This document shows, one piece after another, positions 653 through 64,000 of a DNA stretch of 64,000 nucleotides. This stretch comes from Promethearchaeota archaeon. GTDB taxonomy: Archaea > Asgardarchaeota > Lokiarchaeia > Sigyniarchaeales > SOKP01. The notes under the pieces are model-generated. The model had not been told where the DNA came from and made no database searches. It was given only the letters and a program-made list of their open reading frames with translations. A program made the position numbers and the translations under genes. Position 1 is the stretch's first letter. The number at the start of each line of letters is the position of its first letter. The stretch covers positions 160,001 to 224,000 of the forward strand of contig JAEOTA010000081.1 of the NCBI GenBank assembly GCA_016840085.1, given 5' to 3'.

Positions 653-1897
653 CTATGAAAGATAAATGAAGTAATAATATAAAATTGCTTCAATTAAATT
701 AAAGAAAAGTAATCCAATAATTAACATTATCCCACTATTCATAAAGAAACCTAATATTAAAAAAGATAATAATCCCAAGAAGGACAAAAATGAACTAAAA
801 GCAATTTTTTTATATCTACCTAAAGCTTGGATTTTACCTCCCAAGAAAGCAACTATTACCATTGAAAAAATTAAAAAAATAAAAACACGAATTATATTTT
901 TTCCATCAGTAGATAAATATAAATTGAAGAATTTGTATAAAATTAATTCTAAAGGGATAAAATCTAAAATGAAAAATATAAGGAAAGTTATAATTATTCC
1001 GACAACAATTAAATAGAACATATTTTTATTTTTTTGAGGTGTTTCTTCAACATTGGAAACAGAGAGGGTGGAAATTAGCAAATTTGAACAAAACATAGCT
1101 ATAAATGAAACGAAAAATAGAGATAAATCAAAAATCTTAAATGAATCAGGTGTCATAATTTTAATTGCAAGAAATACTACTAGCCAATTTCCAATAGAAT
1201 GAAATAAGGTATTAATGCTCAATAAAAATCCTTTTTTAATATTTTTAACAGCATTCAACAAATATTCTTTATTGAGTAATTTCTGTAATGAAAAAAATAG
1301 ATATTTCCAACTTGGTTTAGAAAGAATTGCCCCAATAATAAACGAAGATATAAGACTAAAACAATATAAATAGATAAAGAAATTTAAGTTAAGAAAAATC
1401 TGAATATTAAATATAAATGGAATTATAATTAAACCTTCAATAATTGCTGGTATAGATGTGATTAATGCTGATTTTACAGCATATCCACGGGCTCTTGTAT
1501 TGGCAATAAAAAATTCCATAAATGACCTAAATATTATACTTATCGAAAAAAATAATAATTGGAAAATGGAAAATACTTTTAGATAAAAAAATCCCATCAT
1601 AAATATAAAGATAAAGCCAATAAAATTTGTGATCCAATAAGATAAAGCAAAATTCATTTCAATATCCTTAGAAGTATTATTCAATCTAATTTCTCTAGTT
1701 AGTGGACTATGTAGTGTTAATCCAGCCATAGTTATAGTTAGAGCAAATGTTTGTAATGTTAGAGAAAAAATGGGATAATCTTTTCCAGCTAAGACAATTA
1801 ATGGAATGAATCTGAACGGTATTCTGCCCAAGAAAGAAATTACGGTTCCGATTGAAAGAATAAATGTAAATCTTTTGATAGATCTAATTTTTTTCAT
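653..1897 (-). CDS. Multi-pass membrane protein, probable Wzx/MATE-like polysaccharide flippase
   Basis: 414 aa, about 12 hydrophobic segments, glycosylation context; no diagnostic motif. Confidence 0.55.
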   Translation of the reverse strand: MKKIRSIKRFTFILSIGTVISFLGRIPFRFIPLIVLAGKDYPIFSLTLQTFALTITMAGLTLHSPLTREIRLNNTSKDIEMNFALSYWITNFIGFIFIFMMGFFYLKVFSIFQLLFFSISIIFRSFMEFFIANTRARGYAVKSALITSIPAIIEGLIIIPFIFNIQIFLNLNFFIYLYCFSLISSFIIGAILSKPSWKYLFFSLQKLLNKEYLLNAVKNIKKGFLLSINTLFHSIGNWLVVFLAIKIMTPDSFKIFDLSLFFVSFIAMFCSNLLISTLSVSNVEETPQKNKNMFYLIVVGIIITFLIFFILDFIPLELILYKFFNLYLSTDGKNIIRVFIFLIFSMVIVAFLGGKIQALGRYKKIAFSSFLSFLGLLSFLILGFFMNSGIMLIIGLLFFNLIEAILYYYFIYLS

Positions 1898-57911: not shown

Positions 57912-59015
57912 CTATTTAAAAATTGGATAAGATCCTAATAGTTTATACCAAATAACAATCTCATTCATTTCATTTAATACTTCTTTTATTTTAGGGTCTT
58001 CCCTATCACCTTCAAAATCCATTAGAAATATATATTCCCATCGACCTTTCCTACGTGGCCGAGATTCAATTTTCATTAAATTAATACCTGCATCAGCAAA
58101 AATTTTTAGTACACGATATAAAGCTCCGGGAATATGCTTAGTGACAAAAACTATAGAAGTTTTAACTTTATCTTCTTTTAGTTTATTTTCTTTTTTAGAA
58201 ATTATTAAAAACCGTGTATAATTTGAAGGGTTGTCTTCAATCCTTGAATTAAGAACCTTTAAATTATATATTTTACATGAAAATTCAGTACCGATAGCCG
58301 CGTACGATTCATCGTCTAATTCTTCAACTCTACGAACGGCTTCAGCTGTTGAATTTACATTAATCATATTAACATTAGGTAAATATGCTTTAATCCAAGA
58401 TCTTGTTTGAGCAAACGCTTGAGGATGGGAAATTATATTTATAATTTTTGACAAATCAGAATTTTCTAAAGAAATTAAATTTTGAATAATTCTTAACTCA
58501 ATTTCCCCAAATATTATGAGATTTTTTTCAATTAATAAGTCAAGGGTTTCTCTAACAGTACCTTGAAGGCTATTTTCAATTGGAATAACTCCAAAATAAA
58601 TAATATCTTTTTCTATATTTTCAAATATCTCTGAAGTACTATTAAACGTTTTGAATTCTGATCCCGCTTTTGGAAAATATTCAAGAGCTGCTTGATGGGT
58701 AAATGTCCCTTCGGGCCCGAGATACCCTACTTTATTAATAGCTCCTTGAATTAATTTGCTTGCACTCATTATCTCTTTCCAAATTGCGTCAATACTCCCA
58801 TTTTTAAAAATTGTTGCTTTATTTTTTAGTCTTTCAATAATTTTTTTTTCTCTTTGGGGCTCTAGTACTTTTAAATTTAACTTTTGTTTTAAGTTACCAA
58901 TTTCAATTACAATCTTTCCTCGATTGTTTAAGAGATCTACAATAGCGTCATCAATTTTATCGATTTCGTCTCGTAATTTTCTTAATTTTTTCTCTTGGTT
59001 ATTATTTTCACTCAT
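57912..59015 (-). CDS. pheA: Chorismate mutase/prephenate dehydratase (P-protein)
   Basis: LRDEID.ID..IV.LL..R, LGPEGTFT, PIENS, SHPQA, NYTRF, ACT domain IESRP. Confidence 0.95.
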   Translation of the reverse strand: MSENNNQEKKLRKLRDEIDKIDDAIVDLLNNRGKIVIEIGNLKQKLNLKVLEPQREKKIIERLKNKATIFKNGSIDAIWKEIMSASKLIQGAINKVGYLGPEGTFTHQAALEYFPKAGSEFKTFNSTSEIFENIEKDIIYFGVIPIENSLQGTVRETLDLLIEKNLIIFGEIELRIIQNLISLENSDLSKIINIISHPQAFAQTRSWIKAYLPNVNMINVNSTAEAVRRVEELDDESYAAIGTEFSCKIYNLKVLNSRIEDNPSNYTRFLIISKKENKLKEDKVKTSIVFVTKHIPGALYRVLKIFADAGINLMKIESRPRRKGRWEYIFLMDFEGDREDPKIKEVLNEMNEIVIWYKLLGSYPIFK

Positions 59016-59054
59016 TTTTCAAAATTATAGTGTTTTTAATATAAAAATGATAAA

Positions 59055-60740
59055 TTATAATTGATCAAAAAAATGTTCAATATTTAATTCAAATGCCGCA
59101 ACTGGAAATTCTAATTTAAAATTTAATAAAACTTCTGGATGTATTTCACCAATTTCTCCTATAATAGAACCATTCAAATAGATTTCCCCATATCGGCCAT
59201 CTATATAGCTTTGATTTTTACCAGGTTTAACTTCATAATTATTATATTCTCCAAGTGAGTTTATTATGAAATCTAAAGTAGACTTTATTTCAGTATAATC
59301 TGCATCTTCATGATATGAAACAGCAGATAAATGAACTTCTCTCTTTGTTCCCGTTTCCTCTTTTTTTGATAATAAAATTATATCCCCAACCTCGAAAATT
59401 TTAATAGGTTTTTCTTCAGATCTATTTAAAAGTAATGTATCCATTAATTTGGGAAGAATTCTCGTTCTAGTTGTATTATACTCTTTAGAAACGGGATTTG
59501 CTATTTCAACAATTTTATCCTTATTATATTCTTGGTTCATATACTTAAATTGTTTTTCTGAACTTGTTAGAATGAAATTAAGAACTTCTAAGTATCCTGC
59601 TCCAATCATAATTTTCCTTATTCGATTAGAATAATCTTGTATTGGATGATATTGACCGATGCCACCTTCGCGAATTGTAAGAGGTAAATTAATGTAGCCA
59701 TAACCAATAGCACATTCCTCAGTAAAATCAACTGGATGCATTATATCCCCCCTATAAGCAGGTACTAATATATCTAAATATCCCTTCTTTTTAGATTCTA
59801 CTGCACCCATTCTTACTTTTTTAAAACATTTTATCATTTCTGAAATTGTTAAATTCAAACCAATAATGCTATTAATGTAGTCGACATTAACCATCCATTT
59901 TTTTGGGTTCAAATCAGGTGTAATTACCACACTTTTTCCTTCATAATTAACTTTTACAGTTTCTAATTTTGCTCCCATGTCCATCAATGTAGTTGATAGG
60001 ATGTTTAATGCTAAATTAACTGCTTTTAAATCGGTTCCTGTTAAATCTAAAAATAAATTTTTGGTTTCATCTGTTACAGTTGTGAGAACTCCGTTTATAA
60101 CAGGTGGAAAGGACAATACTTCATTCTTTTTATCAAAAATAATAGGATATACTTCTTTTCCTTCTAAAATATGGGCATACTCAATACCCTTATCGTGTAA
60201 TAATAAAATTTCTTCCAAATTCATAGGATATCCATCTCCATGTAATGGAACAAAGCTAACAGAATCTGGTTTTACAGCAGTGTATCTATAGGGAGGTGAA
60301 ACTTTATCAAAATCATGAACTCCAATGGCAACTTTTTTTCTATCCCTTCCTACCGCCCAATGTAGATGTTCTTGAATATTCATCAATGTAGCCACTTCAT
60401 CCTCATCTAAATCAATATCTCGTATAACTCCACAGACTATGTATGGTCGAACTTTTTTTACGAGGGGATCTACATTTAAAACTGTTTCTCCTGAAATAAT
60501 TTCATAAGTTGGAAGGCCTTCCTCAATTTCATAGTAACCCTTAAGAGCTCTCGCAATACCCTCTGGGCTAGAAAAATCTGGCCTATTGGGATTGTATTCA
60601 ACTTTTACCACCTGTTCTTCTTCATTAATATCTTCTAAATCTAAACTAATCCATTGGAGATCATATTCTAATTCTTTTAGATCTAATTTTCTCCCAACTA
60701 ATTTTTCTAATCTTTCAACCTTTAATTCAATTGTAGGCAT
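59055..60740 (-). CDS. pheT: Phenylalanine-tRNA ligase beta subunit (archaeal type)
   Basis: MPTI start, NRPD.SS.EG.ARAL, YRGDIMHPVD..E..AIGYGY, GEIHPEVL. Confidence 0.96.
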   Translation of the reverse strand: MPTIELKVERLEKLVGRKLDLKELEYDLQWISLDLEDINEEEQVVKVEYNPNRPDFSSPEGIARALKGYYEIEEGLPTYEIISGETVLNVDPLVKKVRPYIVCGVIRDIDLDEDEVATLMNIQEHLHWAVGRDRKKVAIGVHDFDKVSPPYRYTAVKPDSVSFVPLHGDGYPMNLEEILLLHDKGIEYAHILEGKEVYPIIFDKKNEVLSFPPVINGVLTTVTDETKNLFLDLTGTDLKAVNLALNILSTTLMDMGAKLETVKVNYEGKSVVITPDLNPKKWMVNVDYINSIIGLNLTISEMIKCFKKVRMGAVESKKKGYLDILVPAYRGDIMHPVDFTEECAIGYGYINLPLTIREGGIGQYHPIQDYSNRIRKIMIGAGYLEVLNFILTSSEKQFKYMNQEYNKDKIVEIANPVSKEYNTTRTRILPKLMDTLLLNRSEEKPIKIFEVGDIILLSKKEETGTKREVHLSAVSYHEDADYTEIKSTLDFIINSLGEYNNYEVKPGKNQSYIDGRYGEIYLNGSIIGEIGEIHPEVLLNFKLEFPVAAFELNIEHFFDQL

Positions 60741-60749
60741 TTTTTCACC

Positions 60750-62291
60750 TCATTTAAGATAAGATTGTTGTCTTAACCAATTTAATGGATTAATATAAAA
60801 ATCTCTAATATCCTTCCGACCATAATAAGGTATTGCGATTCGTTCAAGTCCTTGCCCCCAAGCTAAAACTCGAGTTGGTTCCTTTAACCCCCAAGGATAA
60901 GTCACTTCCGGGCGAAATATCCCAGAACCTCCCATCTCTAGCCACTCGTCAAATTTATCATAATATACTGAAACTTCCATGGAGGGTTCAGTATAAGGGA
61001 AAAATCCTGGTCTTGTAATAATCTTCTTAAATCCCATTTTTCTGTAAAATTCTGACAATAATCCAATTAAATCACATAATGTCACGTTATCATCAATCAC
61101 TATTCCTTCTATTTGAGTGAATTCTGCTAAATGTGATTTATCAACTTTTTCGTTACGAAATACCCTATCAATGCAAAACACCTTTACTGGCACTTTATCA
61201 TTATTTCTATAAAATTCTGCCAATCTTCGCATAGTTGTAGCTGTTGTGTGAGTTCTTAACACTGTTTTTTTAGCGATCTCAATATCCCATTTATAATCCC
61301 ATCCAGTAGAACCTGATTCTCCTCCATTTTCATGCATATCACGTACAGCCAAAACTCTATCTTTCTCGGGTAATTTTGCTGTTTTGGGATTATTAAGATA
61401 GAATGTATCTTGCATTTCACGAGCAGGATGATCTTGCGGTTGATATAAAGCATCAAAACAGTAAAAAGCACTCTCAATGATTGGGCCTCTTATCTCAGTA
61501 AAACCCATTGATAAGAAAATTTCTCTTATTTCATTAATCAAATTAATTAACGGATGGATTTTTCCTGCCTTTAACAATGGTCCAGGTTTAGTGACATCAA
61601 ACGGTTTTAAATTATAATTTTTCCATGTACCTAAACTTAGCATTTCTGATGAAATTTTACTTATTTGCTTCAATTCTTCAATTTTAGAAATAGATACTTT
61701 TTTCCCTTTTTCTGTTAAATATATAATTCTTTGAGTTTTTCGTGTTTTCTTTATTAATTTTCTTCTATTTAAAGTTTCAATTAAACTTAAATGATCTTTA
61801 GACAAAGTAGAATAATCAATCACACAATTTTCTTCAAATTTTTTCAAGAATTTTTCAAGTTCAGTTTGCGGAAACTCTTCAGAAATTAGGTAAACTTTAT
61901 TTTCTCCTGTCGCCTTACTCTGACCGATCCATCTATTTTTCTTCAAATTTGAAATTCCTATATAAAAAATATCTTCTTCTAAATTTGATTGTTTTAACAA
62001 ATTATCGAAGTTAATTTCTTTTATTTTGCTTTTTAACATTAAATTTAATAATTTACGTTCGGGTAATCCATTTTTCAAATAATCGATCCCTTCATTGTTT
62101 AATGAAATTTGATAGATTTCCTCTTCTTTGAAACCTCCCAAATCATATTCAATTAAATCATTAATTGTTGACATTAAGACTATATAATCGATTTTTAATT
62201 CTTTTGCTAGTTCTGCAGCTACCACATCAGAACTTTTTTTTTTTAAGACTTTTAAAATGTCAATTACTTGCTTTTTAAGTTTAATTGTCAT
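60750..62291 (-). CDS. pheS: Phenylalanine-tRNA ligase alpha subunit (archaeal type)
   Basis: FDAL.QPQDHPAREMQDTF, LRTHTT, FRNE..D..HLAEF.Q.EG, FFPYTEPS, AWG.GLER. Confidence 0.97.
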   Translation of the reverse strand: MTIKLKKQVIDILKVLKKKSSDVVAAELAKELKIDYIVLMSTINDLIEYDLGGFKEEEIYQISLNNEGIDYLKNGLPERKLLNLMLKSKIKEINFDNLLKQSNLEEDIFYIGISNLKKNRWIGQSKATGENKVYLISEEFPQTELEKFLKKFEENCVIDYSTLSKDHLSLIETLNRRKLIKKTRKTQRIIYLTEKGKKVSISKIEELKQISKISSEMLSLGTWKNYNLKPFDVTKPGPLLKAGKIHPLINLINEIREIFLSMGFTEIRGPIIESAFYCFDALYQPQDHPAREMQDTFYLNNPKTAKLPEKDRVLAVRDMHENGGESGSTGWDYKWDIEIAKKTVLRTHTTATTMRRLAEFYRNNDKVPVKVFCIDRVFRNEKVDKSHLAEFTQIEGIVIDDNVTLCDLIGLLSEFYRKMGFKKIITRPGFFPYTEPSMEVSVYYDKFDEWLEMGGSGIFRPEVTYPWGLKEPTRVLAWGQGLERIAIPYYGRKDIRDFYINPLNWLRQQSYLK

Positions 62292-62466
62292 GCTTTTGAA
62301 TCGAATTTTTTATTTTTTCATTATTATTTTTAAAATCTCTAATGTATTTAAATCTTTCGTGAATTAAATCGCTTTATTTTGCTCTATCTCGAATTAGAAC
62401 AAAATTTAAACATTTTTTATTATGAAATTTTGGATTTTAAGAAAGATAAGCTCAAGCTCGTCCGCA

Positions 62467-62508
62467 GCCAAGGGAACTATCTCAGCTATTAATATCTATT
62501 CCCTTGGC
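62467..62508 (-). promoter_or_regulatory. GC-rich hairpin GCCAAGGGAA-N22-TTCCCTTGGC upstream of pheS
   Basis: Perfect 10-bp inverted repeat (62467-62476 and 62499-62508) in otherwise AT-rich DNA. Confidence 0.7.
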
Positions 62509-62585
62509 AGAATAAAGAATTTAAAGAGAAATGAATCTTGAGAAATTTGTATATTCAGAAGATTAGGTGTTTTACATATTTTCAT
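62496..62585 (-). CDS. Candidate Phe-rich leader peptide MKICKTPNLLNIQISQDSFLFKFFILPRE
   Basis: ATG 62585 to TAG 62496; four Phe within six codons just before the hairpin; below the ORF-track size cutoff. Confidence 0.4.
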   Translation of the reverse strand: MKICKTPNLLNIQISQDSFLFKFFILPRE

Positions 62586-62652
62586 ATATATATCTCTATT
62601 CAAGTATTCATTTCTTATGATTTATTAAAAGAATACTCAATAAAAAATTTTA

Positions 62653-63093
62653 TTAAATTAAATTTTCTCTAATGGAAGTCGAACTTATTTTAATATTATT
62701 TTTATCCTTGATAATAGGAATTACAATAATTACTAAAGGTTTAAAGCTTTTATTTACTCGTATCTCGTTAATTCTTAAAGCTGTTTCATATGTTTCCTGA
62801 CTTACAACTATACCTTCATATTCCGATTCATTAATAGGAGGACCGTAAGGATCATTTAACTCTACAATATTCGCTCGTTTTATATCTGTAAATGTCTTAA
62901 TATATGATTTAAGATTCCTTTCACGTGTTGCGTAATCCTCAAGTTTTGAAGCAGCTTTCTTATTCTTCAATAATTTTTCTGTTGTTAACCCTATTACAAT
63001 TTTTTTTGAAATAGATAAAGCAGTTTTTATAAGTAACTTATGTCCTTCATGAAGATGATCAAAAGTCCCACCTAATCCAACTTGATTGAGAAT
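62653..63093 (-). CDS. coaD: Archaeal phosphopantetheine adenylyltransferase, probable ATT start
   Basis: The frame extends upstream of 62970 through VGLGGTFDHLHEGHK; DPYGP, IVVS.ET, KISST.IR. Confidence 0.9.
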   Translation of the reverse strand: MLNQVGLGGTFDHLHEGHKLLIKTALSISKKIVIGLTTEKLLKNKKAASKLEDYATRERNLKSYIKTFTDIKRANIVELNDPYGPPINESEYEGIVVSQETYETALRINEIRVNKSFKPLVIIVIPIIKDKNNIKISSTSIRENLI

Positions 63094-63148
63094 TTGTACA
63101 ACACCTTAAAAAATTAAGAAAAACATAAAATAATTAATCCTTTTCCTT

Positions 63149-63568
63149 TTAAACCTTGGGTTTTGTTTCTTGCCCCTTATTGGATTCAGTAGGTCTTTTC
63201 AATCTTACAGAATAAATTTGCTTAATTTCCATTAAGTCATCACACTTATTACATTTGTCTCTCTTCTTAAAAACAAAATCACCTTTTGCATAGTTCCTAA
63301 CTTTAGTAATGCCGCATAAATTACAGATTAAAATAGTTAATGTTTGTCTGATAGGTTCTGGCGGACTTTTTTGTACTTGTATTAACGTAGCACCAAAGCA
63401 TATTAATATAAAACCAATAGACCAGCTTGAGATTTGATCAGGACCAATATTGAGGTAAATAAAAAGAGCTCCTAAAATAATTAAAAATATAAACAGAATA
63501 TTTTTTAAAACACTTTTAAATGTGATTCCTTTTTTTAAAATTTCCTCATCGTCTTCTTCTTCAATCAT
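63149..63568 (-). CDS. Membrane protein with a C-terminal Zn ribbon
   Basis: Two TM segments, CNLC...R.Y..GDFV.K...CNKC...I..IY. Confidence 0.8.
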   Translation of the reverse strand: MIEEEDDEEILKKGITFKSVLKNILFIFLIILGALFIYLNIGPDQISSWSIGFILICFGATLIQVQKSPPEPIRQTLTILICNLCGITKVRNYAKGDFVFKKRDKCNKCDDLMEIKQIYSVRLKRPTESNKGQETKPKV

Positions 63569-63688
63569 AGAAAATGTTGCAATATCTTGTTATCTATTCA
63601 CTATAATAGAAAAGAATAAATAAATTTTTTTATTATAAAACTATAATAGATAAAAGTTTTCAATTTTAAGTTAAAGTTTTGGGTAAAA

Positions 63689-64000
63689 ATGTTTAATATA
63701 TTTCAATTTGGCAGTGAAGGAACTGATCCGATAAGTTTAATTATCCAACTATTATGGTTTGTTCTTATATTTATAAGTATTTTTTATGGACAGAAGATTC
63801 AAGGTTGGAAAGCATCTAAAGAAATACAAATAGGATTAGAAAAATTAAAAAAATGGAATGACGAGTGTAAAGAAATTTTAATGAATAATTTTAAAGAATT
63901 TGCTGATCAAAAGAAGACTCAAAAAGATTTAATGCTGCAACTTGAAGATTTTATTACTTTTGTTACTATAGCTCCTGTATCACTTGATCCCTATGGTATT
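63689..64000 (+). CDS. DUF1512-family protein, partial (runs off window end)
   Basis: MFNIFQFG...LLWFVLIFISIFYGQKIQ...FVTIAPVSLDPYGI, open to the window end. Confidence 0.75.
   Translation, partial: MFNIFQFGSEGTDPISLIIQLLWFVLIFISIFYGQKIQGWKASKEIQIGLEKLKKWNDECKEILMNNFKEFADQKKTQKDLMLQLEDFITFVTIAPVSLDPYGI

Follow-up and report, generated by a model that had tools for sequence, protein, structure and literature searches.

A conserved phenylalanine-codon leader upstream of pheS-pheT-pheA in a family of Asgard archaea, a candidate ribosome-read sensor of charged tRNA-Phe

Why should an Asgard archaeon keep a very short, phenylalanine-rich reading frame directly ahead of its genes for phenylalanyl-tRNA synthetase (PheRS) and PheA, and could this frame serve as a leader peptide for them? 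The locus resides in a stretch of 64,000 nucleotides, referred to as the window, which corresponds to contig C78 of a host genome of 4.68 Mb with a GC content of 29.5%. The relatives of this organism carry the labels Promethearchaeota or Promethearchaeia and are thus Asgard archaea. On the minus strand, a gene for a coaD-like cytidylyltransferase (CTP_transf_like, 63105-62653) is followed by an open reading frame of 29 codons plus TAG (62496..62585), by pheS for PheRS alpha (62291-60750), pheT for PheRS beta (60740-59055) and pheA, which encodes a fusion of chorismate mutase, prephenate dehydratase and an ACT domain (CM-PDT-ACT, 59015-57912), and finally by the gene for RNase PH. The pheS-pheT-pheA block (57912..62291) is interrupted by gaps of just 9 and 39 nt. 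Pfam domains match PheRS alpha, PheRS beta and PheA, in agreement with the initial annotation, according to which the downstream genes all concern phenylalanine. The RNase PH gene (RNase_PH and RNase_PH_C domains, 57825-57109) lies 86 nt past pheA on the same strand. At the other end of the locus, ATG, GTG and TTG are all absent from the coaD-like gene between the upstream in-frame stop codon (63108-63106) and the GGTFDHLHEGH motif, and translation probably begins with an ATT at 63093. In some relatives, the phenylalanine leader, too, seemingly begins with ATT or TTG. No tRNA genes were found within the window.

The short reading frame runs from an ATG at 62585 to a TAG at 62498-62496 and encodes the 29-residue peptide MKICKTPNLLNIQISQDSFLFKFFILPRE. 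It contains a total of four phenylalanine codons, all of which fall into the stretch TTT CTC TTT AAA TTC TTT (FLFKFF, 62514..62531), exactly as initially described. The accompanying caveat that such codons are common in AT-rich DNA proved justified, as phenylalanine codons are expected at a frequency of 8% in this DNA and a genome-wide composition scan for short reading frames locally enriched in a single amino acid left the frame unranked. A lone phenylalanine-rich reading frame in DNA with 30% GC does not rise above chance. It is conservation that lifts the leader above it.

The region upstream of pheS was collected from about 75 genomes of the order. The reading frame is retained upstream of pheS, on the operon strand, in about 60 genomes from several genera together with its phenylalanine cluster, and the leader idea has thereby withstood the comparison with relatives that had been suggested for it. 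The complete leader unit is conserved throughout one family of the Promethearchaeia (genera g1, g12 and g14-g18). All over this family, the peptides share the C-terminal motif Q-D/A-S-F-x-F-x-F-F-I/N-L/P-P-R-E/D, the N-terminal half is not conserved, and the frames terminate 9 nt into the same arm of a hairpin. Relatives have three to five phenylalanine codons within six to seven codons at the position of the cluster; their number is kept while their positions move. The last TTT is invariant in the alignment and in every case 5 nt separate the last phenylalanine codon from the hairpin stem.

Frame statistics were obtained for 56 non-identical genomes. Nucleotide identity across the 13 N-terminal codons is just 36%, and yet the leader frame is free of stop codons over this part in 55 of the 56 genomes, compared with 17 and 9 for the other two frames. 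Shuffled sequences had an open frame in a mean of 15.8 genomes and in 29 at most (2000 trials). The start codon, ATG or TTG, is found at a fixed distance, the modal length of the leader is exactly 29 codons (26 of 56 genomes), and the last 15 codons contain a mean of 4.0 phenylalanines in the leader frame as opposed to 2.0 and 2.1 in the other frames. Judged from these counts, selection keeps the leader frame open. A frame that preserves its length, its phase and its codon content while the peptide sequence drifts bears the signature of a translated leader, as far as sequences can reveal it. Among genomes of the same genus, the intergenic DNA is 70-79% identical and as conserved as the flanking coding DNA; the flanking proteins in the same comparison are 63-73% (PheS) and 57-67% (CoaD) identical. 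A variant arrangement is present upstream of pheS in genus g13 (L053-L056), where the reading frame stops 4 nt before the hairpin arm and contains two phenylalanine codons only (…GVIFSLASLFVI); the hairpin persists, its closing pair having changed to C-G in a compensatory manner.

The hairpin itself, designated P2 (62467..62508), was evaluated by folding, RNAalifold and covariation. Its 5' arm GCCAAGGGAA (62508-62499), formed by the codons L-P-R-E at the end of the reading frame, pairs perfectly over 10 bp with TTCCCTTGGC (62476-62467). The GC-rich stem proposed in the initial annotation is therefore real, with the refinement that the TAG is located at the beginning of the loop. A stretch of 221 nt folds with z = -2.75, and none of 200 shuffled sequences was equally stable. 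In an RNAalifold analysis of 56 sequences, P2 was the sole consensus structure. Compensatory exchanges of GC for AU pairs were observed, so that the predicted covariation of the stem was indeed encountered in related genomes: pair 195:231 is GC in 35, GU in 12 and AU in 8 of the 56 genomes, and C-G replaces G-C as the closing pair in genus g13. Cells deviating from Watson-Crick pairing are G-U in 26 cases and A-C in 2, an asymmetry which indicates that selection acts on P2 as an RNA transcribed in the direction of pheS. No variation affects the stem core GCCAAG/CUUGGC, and the tail UGCGGA immediately 3' of P2 (62461..62466) is nearly invariant in alignment A1. The invariant core hints at a sequence-specific reader, for which the model favoured below has no place. 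Hairpin plus tail are a single copy in the 4.68-Mb genome and do not constitute a repeat family. A search of Rfam over 61500-64000 at E ≤ 10 yielded nothing relevant, with neither a Phe_leader nor a T-box match. Mimicry of tRNA, considered because of GAA in the loop and UGGN as a possible T-box-like acceptor partner, was dropped since these features are not conserved.

A second helix, P1, is probable, though not certain. Its 5' strand AAAUGAAUACUUGA (62600..62613) lies upstream of the start codon of the leader, at a distance of 15 nt (spanning 15-28 nt), and is complementary to codons 15-19 of the frame, where the 3' strand UCAAGAUUCAUUU (62529..62541) encodes Q-D-S-F. When duplex energies were calculated genome by genome, the mean z was -2.8 and the pairing was significant against shuffles (p ≤ 0.05) in 73% of 56 genomes. 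Genus g17 retains the pairing with a different sequence (AUCGUAA/UUACGAU), and the sense strand is the more stable one in 38 genomes against 18 for the antisense strand (p = 0.004). An alignment-based count gave a weaker result, with 77% paired and 33 G-U compared with 27 A-C cells. The phenylalanine codons are thus placed between P1 and P2. No conserved alternative partner was detected downstream or in the tail behind the hairpin, neither for the 3' arm of P2 and its tail nor for the 5' strand of P1 (mean z of -0.03, -0.22 and -0.14 in the respective tests). Instead of a mutually exclusive 1:2/2:3/3:4 set of terminator and antiterminator, the leader contains P1 and P2 only.

A parallel within the same genome provides independent insight. 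The composition scan retrieved two tryptophan-rich reading frames, MATEKIILFRWQWLWRA and MIMATVIYFTWQWPWWRQ, upstream of trpD-trpC-trpF-trpB and of a gene for a PALP protein of 471 residues that resembles TrpB2. Both are encoded on the plus strand (G000:C46:18058-18111, equivalent to L105:759-812, and G000:C81:42463-42519, equivalent to L104:664-720), end with …FRWQWLWRA and …FTWQWPWWRQ, and use their last codons to build a GC-rich hairpin with the stop codon in its loop. An architecture scan, in which a frame of 10-60 codons with a GC-rich hairpin over its stop codon was demanded upstream of a gene, returned just 16 matches in 4.68 Mb, and these included the phenylalanine leader and both tryptophan leaders. 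Taken together, the two scans of the host genome uncovered leaders for phenylalanine and tryptophan and for no other amino acid; a valine-rich match before a zf-AN1/M50 gene and a histidine-rich one before a luciferase-like gene were discarded, as they are not cognate to the gene downstream. In relatives, tryptophan leaders were located via TrpD protein searches, because a DNA search gave a single genome, trpD being patchily distributed. Twenty of the 22 family genomes possessing trpD have a tryptophan-rich leader in front of it, and the hairpins covary between genera (GGCGCG/CGCGC, GGCGTT/AACGCC, GCACGC/GCGTGC). With tryptophan codons accounting for 0.6% of random frames in this DNA, such a recurrence is beyond chance. 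By the evidence of their codons and hairpins, the tryptophan leaders demonstrate that this lineage uses cognate-codon leaders. Between the tryptophan leader and trpD, a further reading frame of about 50 residues (L105 about 1038-1190, plus strand) with the conserved sequence …GPEK(N/S)KTA(R/K)FI… was noted in the host genome and in several genera (g12, g15, g16 and g17).

The leaders for the two amino acids, found in the same lineage, share cognate codons at the C-terminal end, a GC-rich hairpin whose 5' arm consists of the last two to four codons and whose loop harbors the stop codon, and a short conserved motif behind the hairpin that is followed by a run of U. They differ in their additional pairing. 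In the tryptophan leaders, the 5' untranslated region pairs with the segment behind the hairpin including the U-run, a pairing which is absent from the phenylalanine leader, where the 5' strand instead pairs with codons inside the reading frame. In addition, the tryptophan hairpin covaries freely whereas the stem core of the phenylalanine hairpin is invariant.

In principle, P2 could simply be the terminator of the coaD-like gene, which ends 145 nt upstream on the same strand and is a widespread neighbor of pheS. Synteny rejects this reading and leaves it with hardly any probability. The association of reading frame and hairpin with pheS is unbroken in L011, L006 and L052, whose upstream gene is divergent, and in L042, L045 and L046, where another gene occupies the upstream position; an oligo-T sequence is already present after the coaD stop codon, and in a sister family the distance between coaD and pheS is 50-120 nt and the element is missing. 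The hairpin follows pheS and not coaD, and the attenuator idea thus survives an objection that had been raised along with it. The sister family in question, f2, includes closed genomes; wherever coaD is its upstream neighbor, only the said 50-120 nt remain up to pheS. No comparable short reading frame was found in sister families f2 and f4. Given a sister family without it, the leader element is an innovation of a single family.

The oligo-T just mentioned is part of the A-run/T-run TAAAATTTTTTA (62641..62652), which directly follows the coaD stop codon, is at least 90% conserved in alignment A1 and is present also in the three relatives with a divergent upstream gene. It is a candidate BRE/TATA element for the leader transcript or else the oligo-T terminator of coaD; a role as promoter is suggested by its spacing only. 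At the other end of the leader, P2 and its tail are followed by a small hairpin, GAGC-UUGA-GCUU, and the U-rich stretch CUUAUCUUUCUU (62439..62460). Both had been pointed out in the initial annotation and call for some correction. The small hairpin exists but is confined to this genome and its nearest relative, and the U-rich stretch contains no run longer than U3 in the window, while most relatives have U4-U7 at this site. Family-wide, T-runs of at least four occur in the 35 nt after P2 in 72% of the genomes compared with 32% for a spacer control, and T-runs of at least six in 23% compared with 2%. In relatives, the U-run begins 6-7 nt past the stem and not directly at it. In archaea, termination relies on U-tracts together with aCPSF1/FttA, and a hairpin is dispensable (PMC8716108, PMC11616081). 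The enrichment of U-runs behind P2 fits a transcript end at this site. Another hairpin after P2 (GGAUUUU...AAAAUCC) is restricted to some g1 genomes, has a mean z of -0.4, was not recovered by RNAalifold and is not a family feature.

Downstream of the hairpin, pheS very probably also has a start of its own. The BRE/TATA element CGAAAGA-TTTAAATA (62345..62359) is nearly invariant in the family alignments, is situated at the usual promoter distance and coincides with no RNA structure, which is why we regard it as the probable pheS promoter; the early suggestion that it could drive pheS independently has gained considerable weight. In most genomes, 61-63 nt separate the TATA from the pheS ATG. 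Matches to TTTAWATA before genes of the host genome peak at 50-69 nt, so that the pheS element falls inside the peak, and similar BRE/TATA motifs were found ahead of other genes. Transcription would be expected to start near 62322 and to generate a 5' untranslated region of about 30 nt. With this conserved element between P2 and pheS, the gene need not rely on read-through from the leader.

A separate pheS promoter, together with a promoter-like element ahead of the leader, a hairpin with U-runs behind it and a frame that is selected to stay open, would also suit a stand-alone microprotein of 29 residues with a hydrophobic C-terminus and a terminator hairpin of its own, which merely happens to neighbor pheS. 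Several of the properties described above speak against this interpretation and render it improbable: the N-terminal half is unconstrained, phenylalanines change position but not number, the residues that are conserved map to the RNA helices P1 and P2, the linkage to pheS outlives the loss of the upstream neighbor, and the same design recurs with tryptophan codons before trp genes.

Directly upstream of the pheS BRE, a block of about 40 nt (TTCTAATTCGAGATAGAGC...GATTTAATTCA, 62360..62399) is conserved in the family alignments at a fixed distance to the hairpin. RNAalifold provided no consensus RNA structure in this block, and a TCTAAT/ATTAGA pairing that had been spotted by eye is not accompanied by covariation. 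The block (62399-62360) looks like an operator or an upstream activating site. On the minus strand it contains TTCGAGAT; the version in most relatives is TTCAAGAT. In one relative (L014; G012:C54), the pheS promoter block along with the first 18 or so pheS codons is duplicated (465-638 and 1180-1351), and the additional copy precedes a 5'-truncated coaD, indicating a local rearrangement. The motif TCAAGA appears three times in the leader region, i.e., inverted in the 5' region of the leader, within the codons Q-D-S of the reading frame, and before the pheS BRE. Hairpin and TATA keep a fixed distance of 112-118 nt in 51 of the 62 genomes, and the sequence of the spacer is free. This constancy hints at a closer functional tie between leader and promoter, and the favored model leaves it unexplained.

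These observations could be combined in a different way, namely as a non-coding region in which repeated TTCAAGAT boxes are operator sites for a DNA-binding regulator, accompanied by a structured RNA or terminator, with the reading frame being incidental. The threefold TCAAGA, the fixed spacing to the promoter and the alignment count for P1, in which G-U cells do not clearly exceed A-C cells (33 versus 27), would conform to such an arrangement. It is nevertheless quite unlikely, since an open frame is seen in 55 of the 56 genomes where about 16 would be expected, the start codon occurs at a fixed distance, P1 is stabler on the sense strand, P2 is clearly under selection at the RNA level, and the tryptophan leaders repeat the design.

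We consider it very likely that the conserved frame is a translated leader peptide that senses Phe-tRNA. The proposal in the initial annotation that the position of the ribosome senses Phe-tRNA and controls the hairpin is strongly supported by the conserved frame, its length, the phenylalanine cluster, the hairpin and the tryptophan leaders. Whether termination and read-through are the output of the leader is an evenly balanced matter. The designation as an attenuator of pheS is backed by the enrichment of U-runs in the family, and weakened by the failure to find an antiterminator, by the poor U-tract in the window and by the promoter between hairpin and pheS. By a narrow preference, we explain the locus in full as a leader that gauges charged tRNA-Phe for pheS-pheT-pheA via termination and read-through.

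In this model, we infer that the leader transcript begins upstream of the reading frame, with a 5' end that can pair with codons 15-19 to form P1. When Phe-tRNA is plentiful, the ribosome would reach the stop codon and depart, P1 and P2 would form, and the transcript would end at the U-rich stretch behind P2, before the pheS promoter. A shortage of Phe-tRNA would stall the ribosome on the phenylalanine codons, where it would mask the 5' arm of P2 as well as the 3' strand of P1; P2 would then be blocked and transcription would continue through the pheS promoter into pheS-pheT-pheA. With the last phenylalanine codon in the A site, the ribosome would extend over the next 5 nt into the beginning of the 5' arm of P2 and, at its rear, over the 3' strand of P1. 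On the basis of this geometry and of standard ribosome footprints, stalling should block both helices. Read-through would supplement the basal output of the pheS promoter, such that in this two-promoter arrangement the internal promoter may ensure the basal supply of an essential enzyme and the leader promoter may add read-through whenever Phe-tRNA runs short. A point against termination is that P2 is likewise covered while a ribosome occupies the stop codon; the timing would then need pausing of the polymerase. Coupling of transcription and translation has been reported in other archaea (review PMC13681488).

The leader may also sense phenylalanine and act by something other than termination, which we hold to be possible but unlikely. 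Three options come into question. The terminated leader RNA with P1 and P2 may act in trans as a small RNA, and bacterial attenuator-derived small RNAs and leader peptides that can work in trans are known (PMC7968998, PMC7298713). Transcription of the leader, or the stalled complex, may modulate the adjacent pheS promoter, be it through interference or because a regulator is dislodged from the conserved block. Finally, the nascent peptide (…FFILPRE) may arrest the ribosome in response to free phenylalanine. Arrest of the ribosome by a nascent peptide in response to tryptophan is exemplified by TnaC. An output of this kind would agree with the conserved promoter owned by pheS, with the hairpin-to-TATA distance that is maintained despite a free spacer, with the invariance of the stem core and the UGCGGA tail and with the lack of an antiterminator in our searches. 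On the other hand, neither a target nor a partner sequence came to light, the hairpin is followed by an excess of U-runs as expected for a transcript end, and a reading in cis is the simplest explanation for the linkage to pheS.

Taking the phenylalanine and tryptophan leaders together, the balance tips slightly towards the view that this Asgard family runs a set of ribosome-read leaders, with phenylalanine codons for pheST-pheA and tryptophan codons for trpDCFB and trpB2, which would have evolved independently of bacterial attenuators. Their wiring would be their own, as part of the same view: cognate codons placed close up to a hairpin with the stop codon inside, a closing helix that involves the 5' untranslated region, and an output via U-tract/FttA termination or via the adjacent promoter. 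In bacteria, attenuation mediated by the ribosome is a textbook mechanism and requires coupled transcription and translation, and our literature search found no published leader-peptide attenuator from archaea. If the interpretation is correct, these leaders would constitute the first case of leader-peptide attenuation in Archaea, residing in the closest prokaryotic relatives of eukaryotes. Such a case would imply that archaea, too, gauge amino acid supply by the speed of the ribosome, and do so with a eukaryote-like transcription machinery and U-tract/FttA termination. The locus would offer a testable system for archaeal coupling, for the interplay of RNA structure and termination and for control of the uORF type in the organisms nearest to eukaryotes, and it draws attention to unannotated mini-genes that have been overlooked in the annotation of Asgard MAGs.

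Several known systems invite comparison. T-box riboswitches of Firmicutes similarly switch aminoacyl-tRNA synthetase and amino acid genes according to the charging state of the cognate tRNA. They bind the tRNA directly and are not translated, in contrast to the Asgard region, which is an open reading frame and has no T-box match in Rfam. In mycobacteria, polycysteine leaderless short reading frames (bioRxiv 10.1101/834739) resemble the proposed Asgard leader in that ribosome stalling on a short frame with many codons for one amino acid informs a downstream operon about the supply of this amino acid and that a classical terminator/antiterminator pair is missing. The mycobacterial frames are bacterial and leaderless, and the genes they act on follow immediately downstream, whereas the putatively regulated gene of the Asgard case is located 200 nt away behind its own promoter.

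The functionally closest known systems are pheM-pheST and pheL-pheA of Escherichia coli, where leader peptides mediate transcription attenuation (Phe_leader in Rfam). Here as there, a short reading frame on the operon strand has phenylalanine codons near its end, precedes a hairpin and lies upstream of genes for Phe-tRNA synthetase or phenylalanine biosynthesis, and the logic would be the same, with the speed of the ribosome on phenylalanine codons reporting charged tRNA-Phe. The Asgard leader belongs to another domain of life and not to that RNA family, as it matches neither sequence nor structure in Rfam. With 29 codons it is about twice as long, and two helices flank its phenylalanine codons in place of the 1:2/2:3/3:4 switch with its antiterminator. 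Unlike in E. coli, the U-stretch does not directly adjoin the stem, a promoter is interposed between hairpin and pheS, and a single leader would serve pheST plus pheA.
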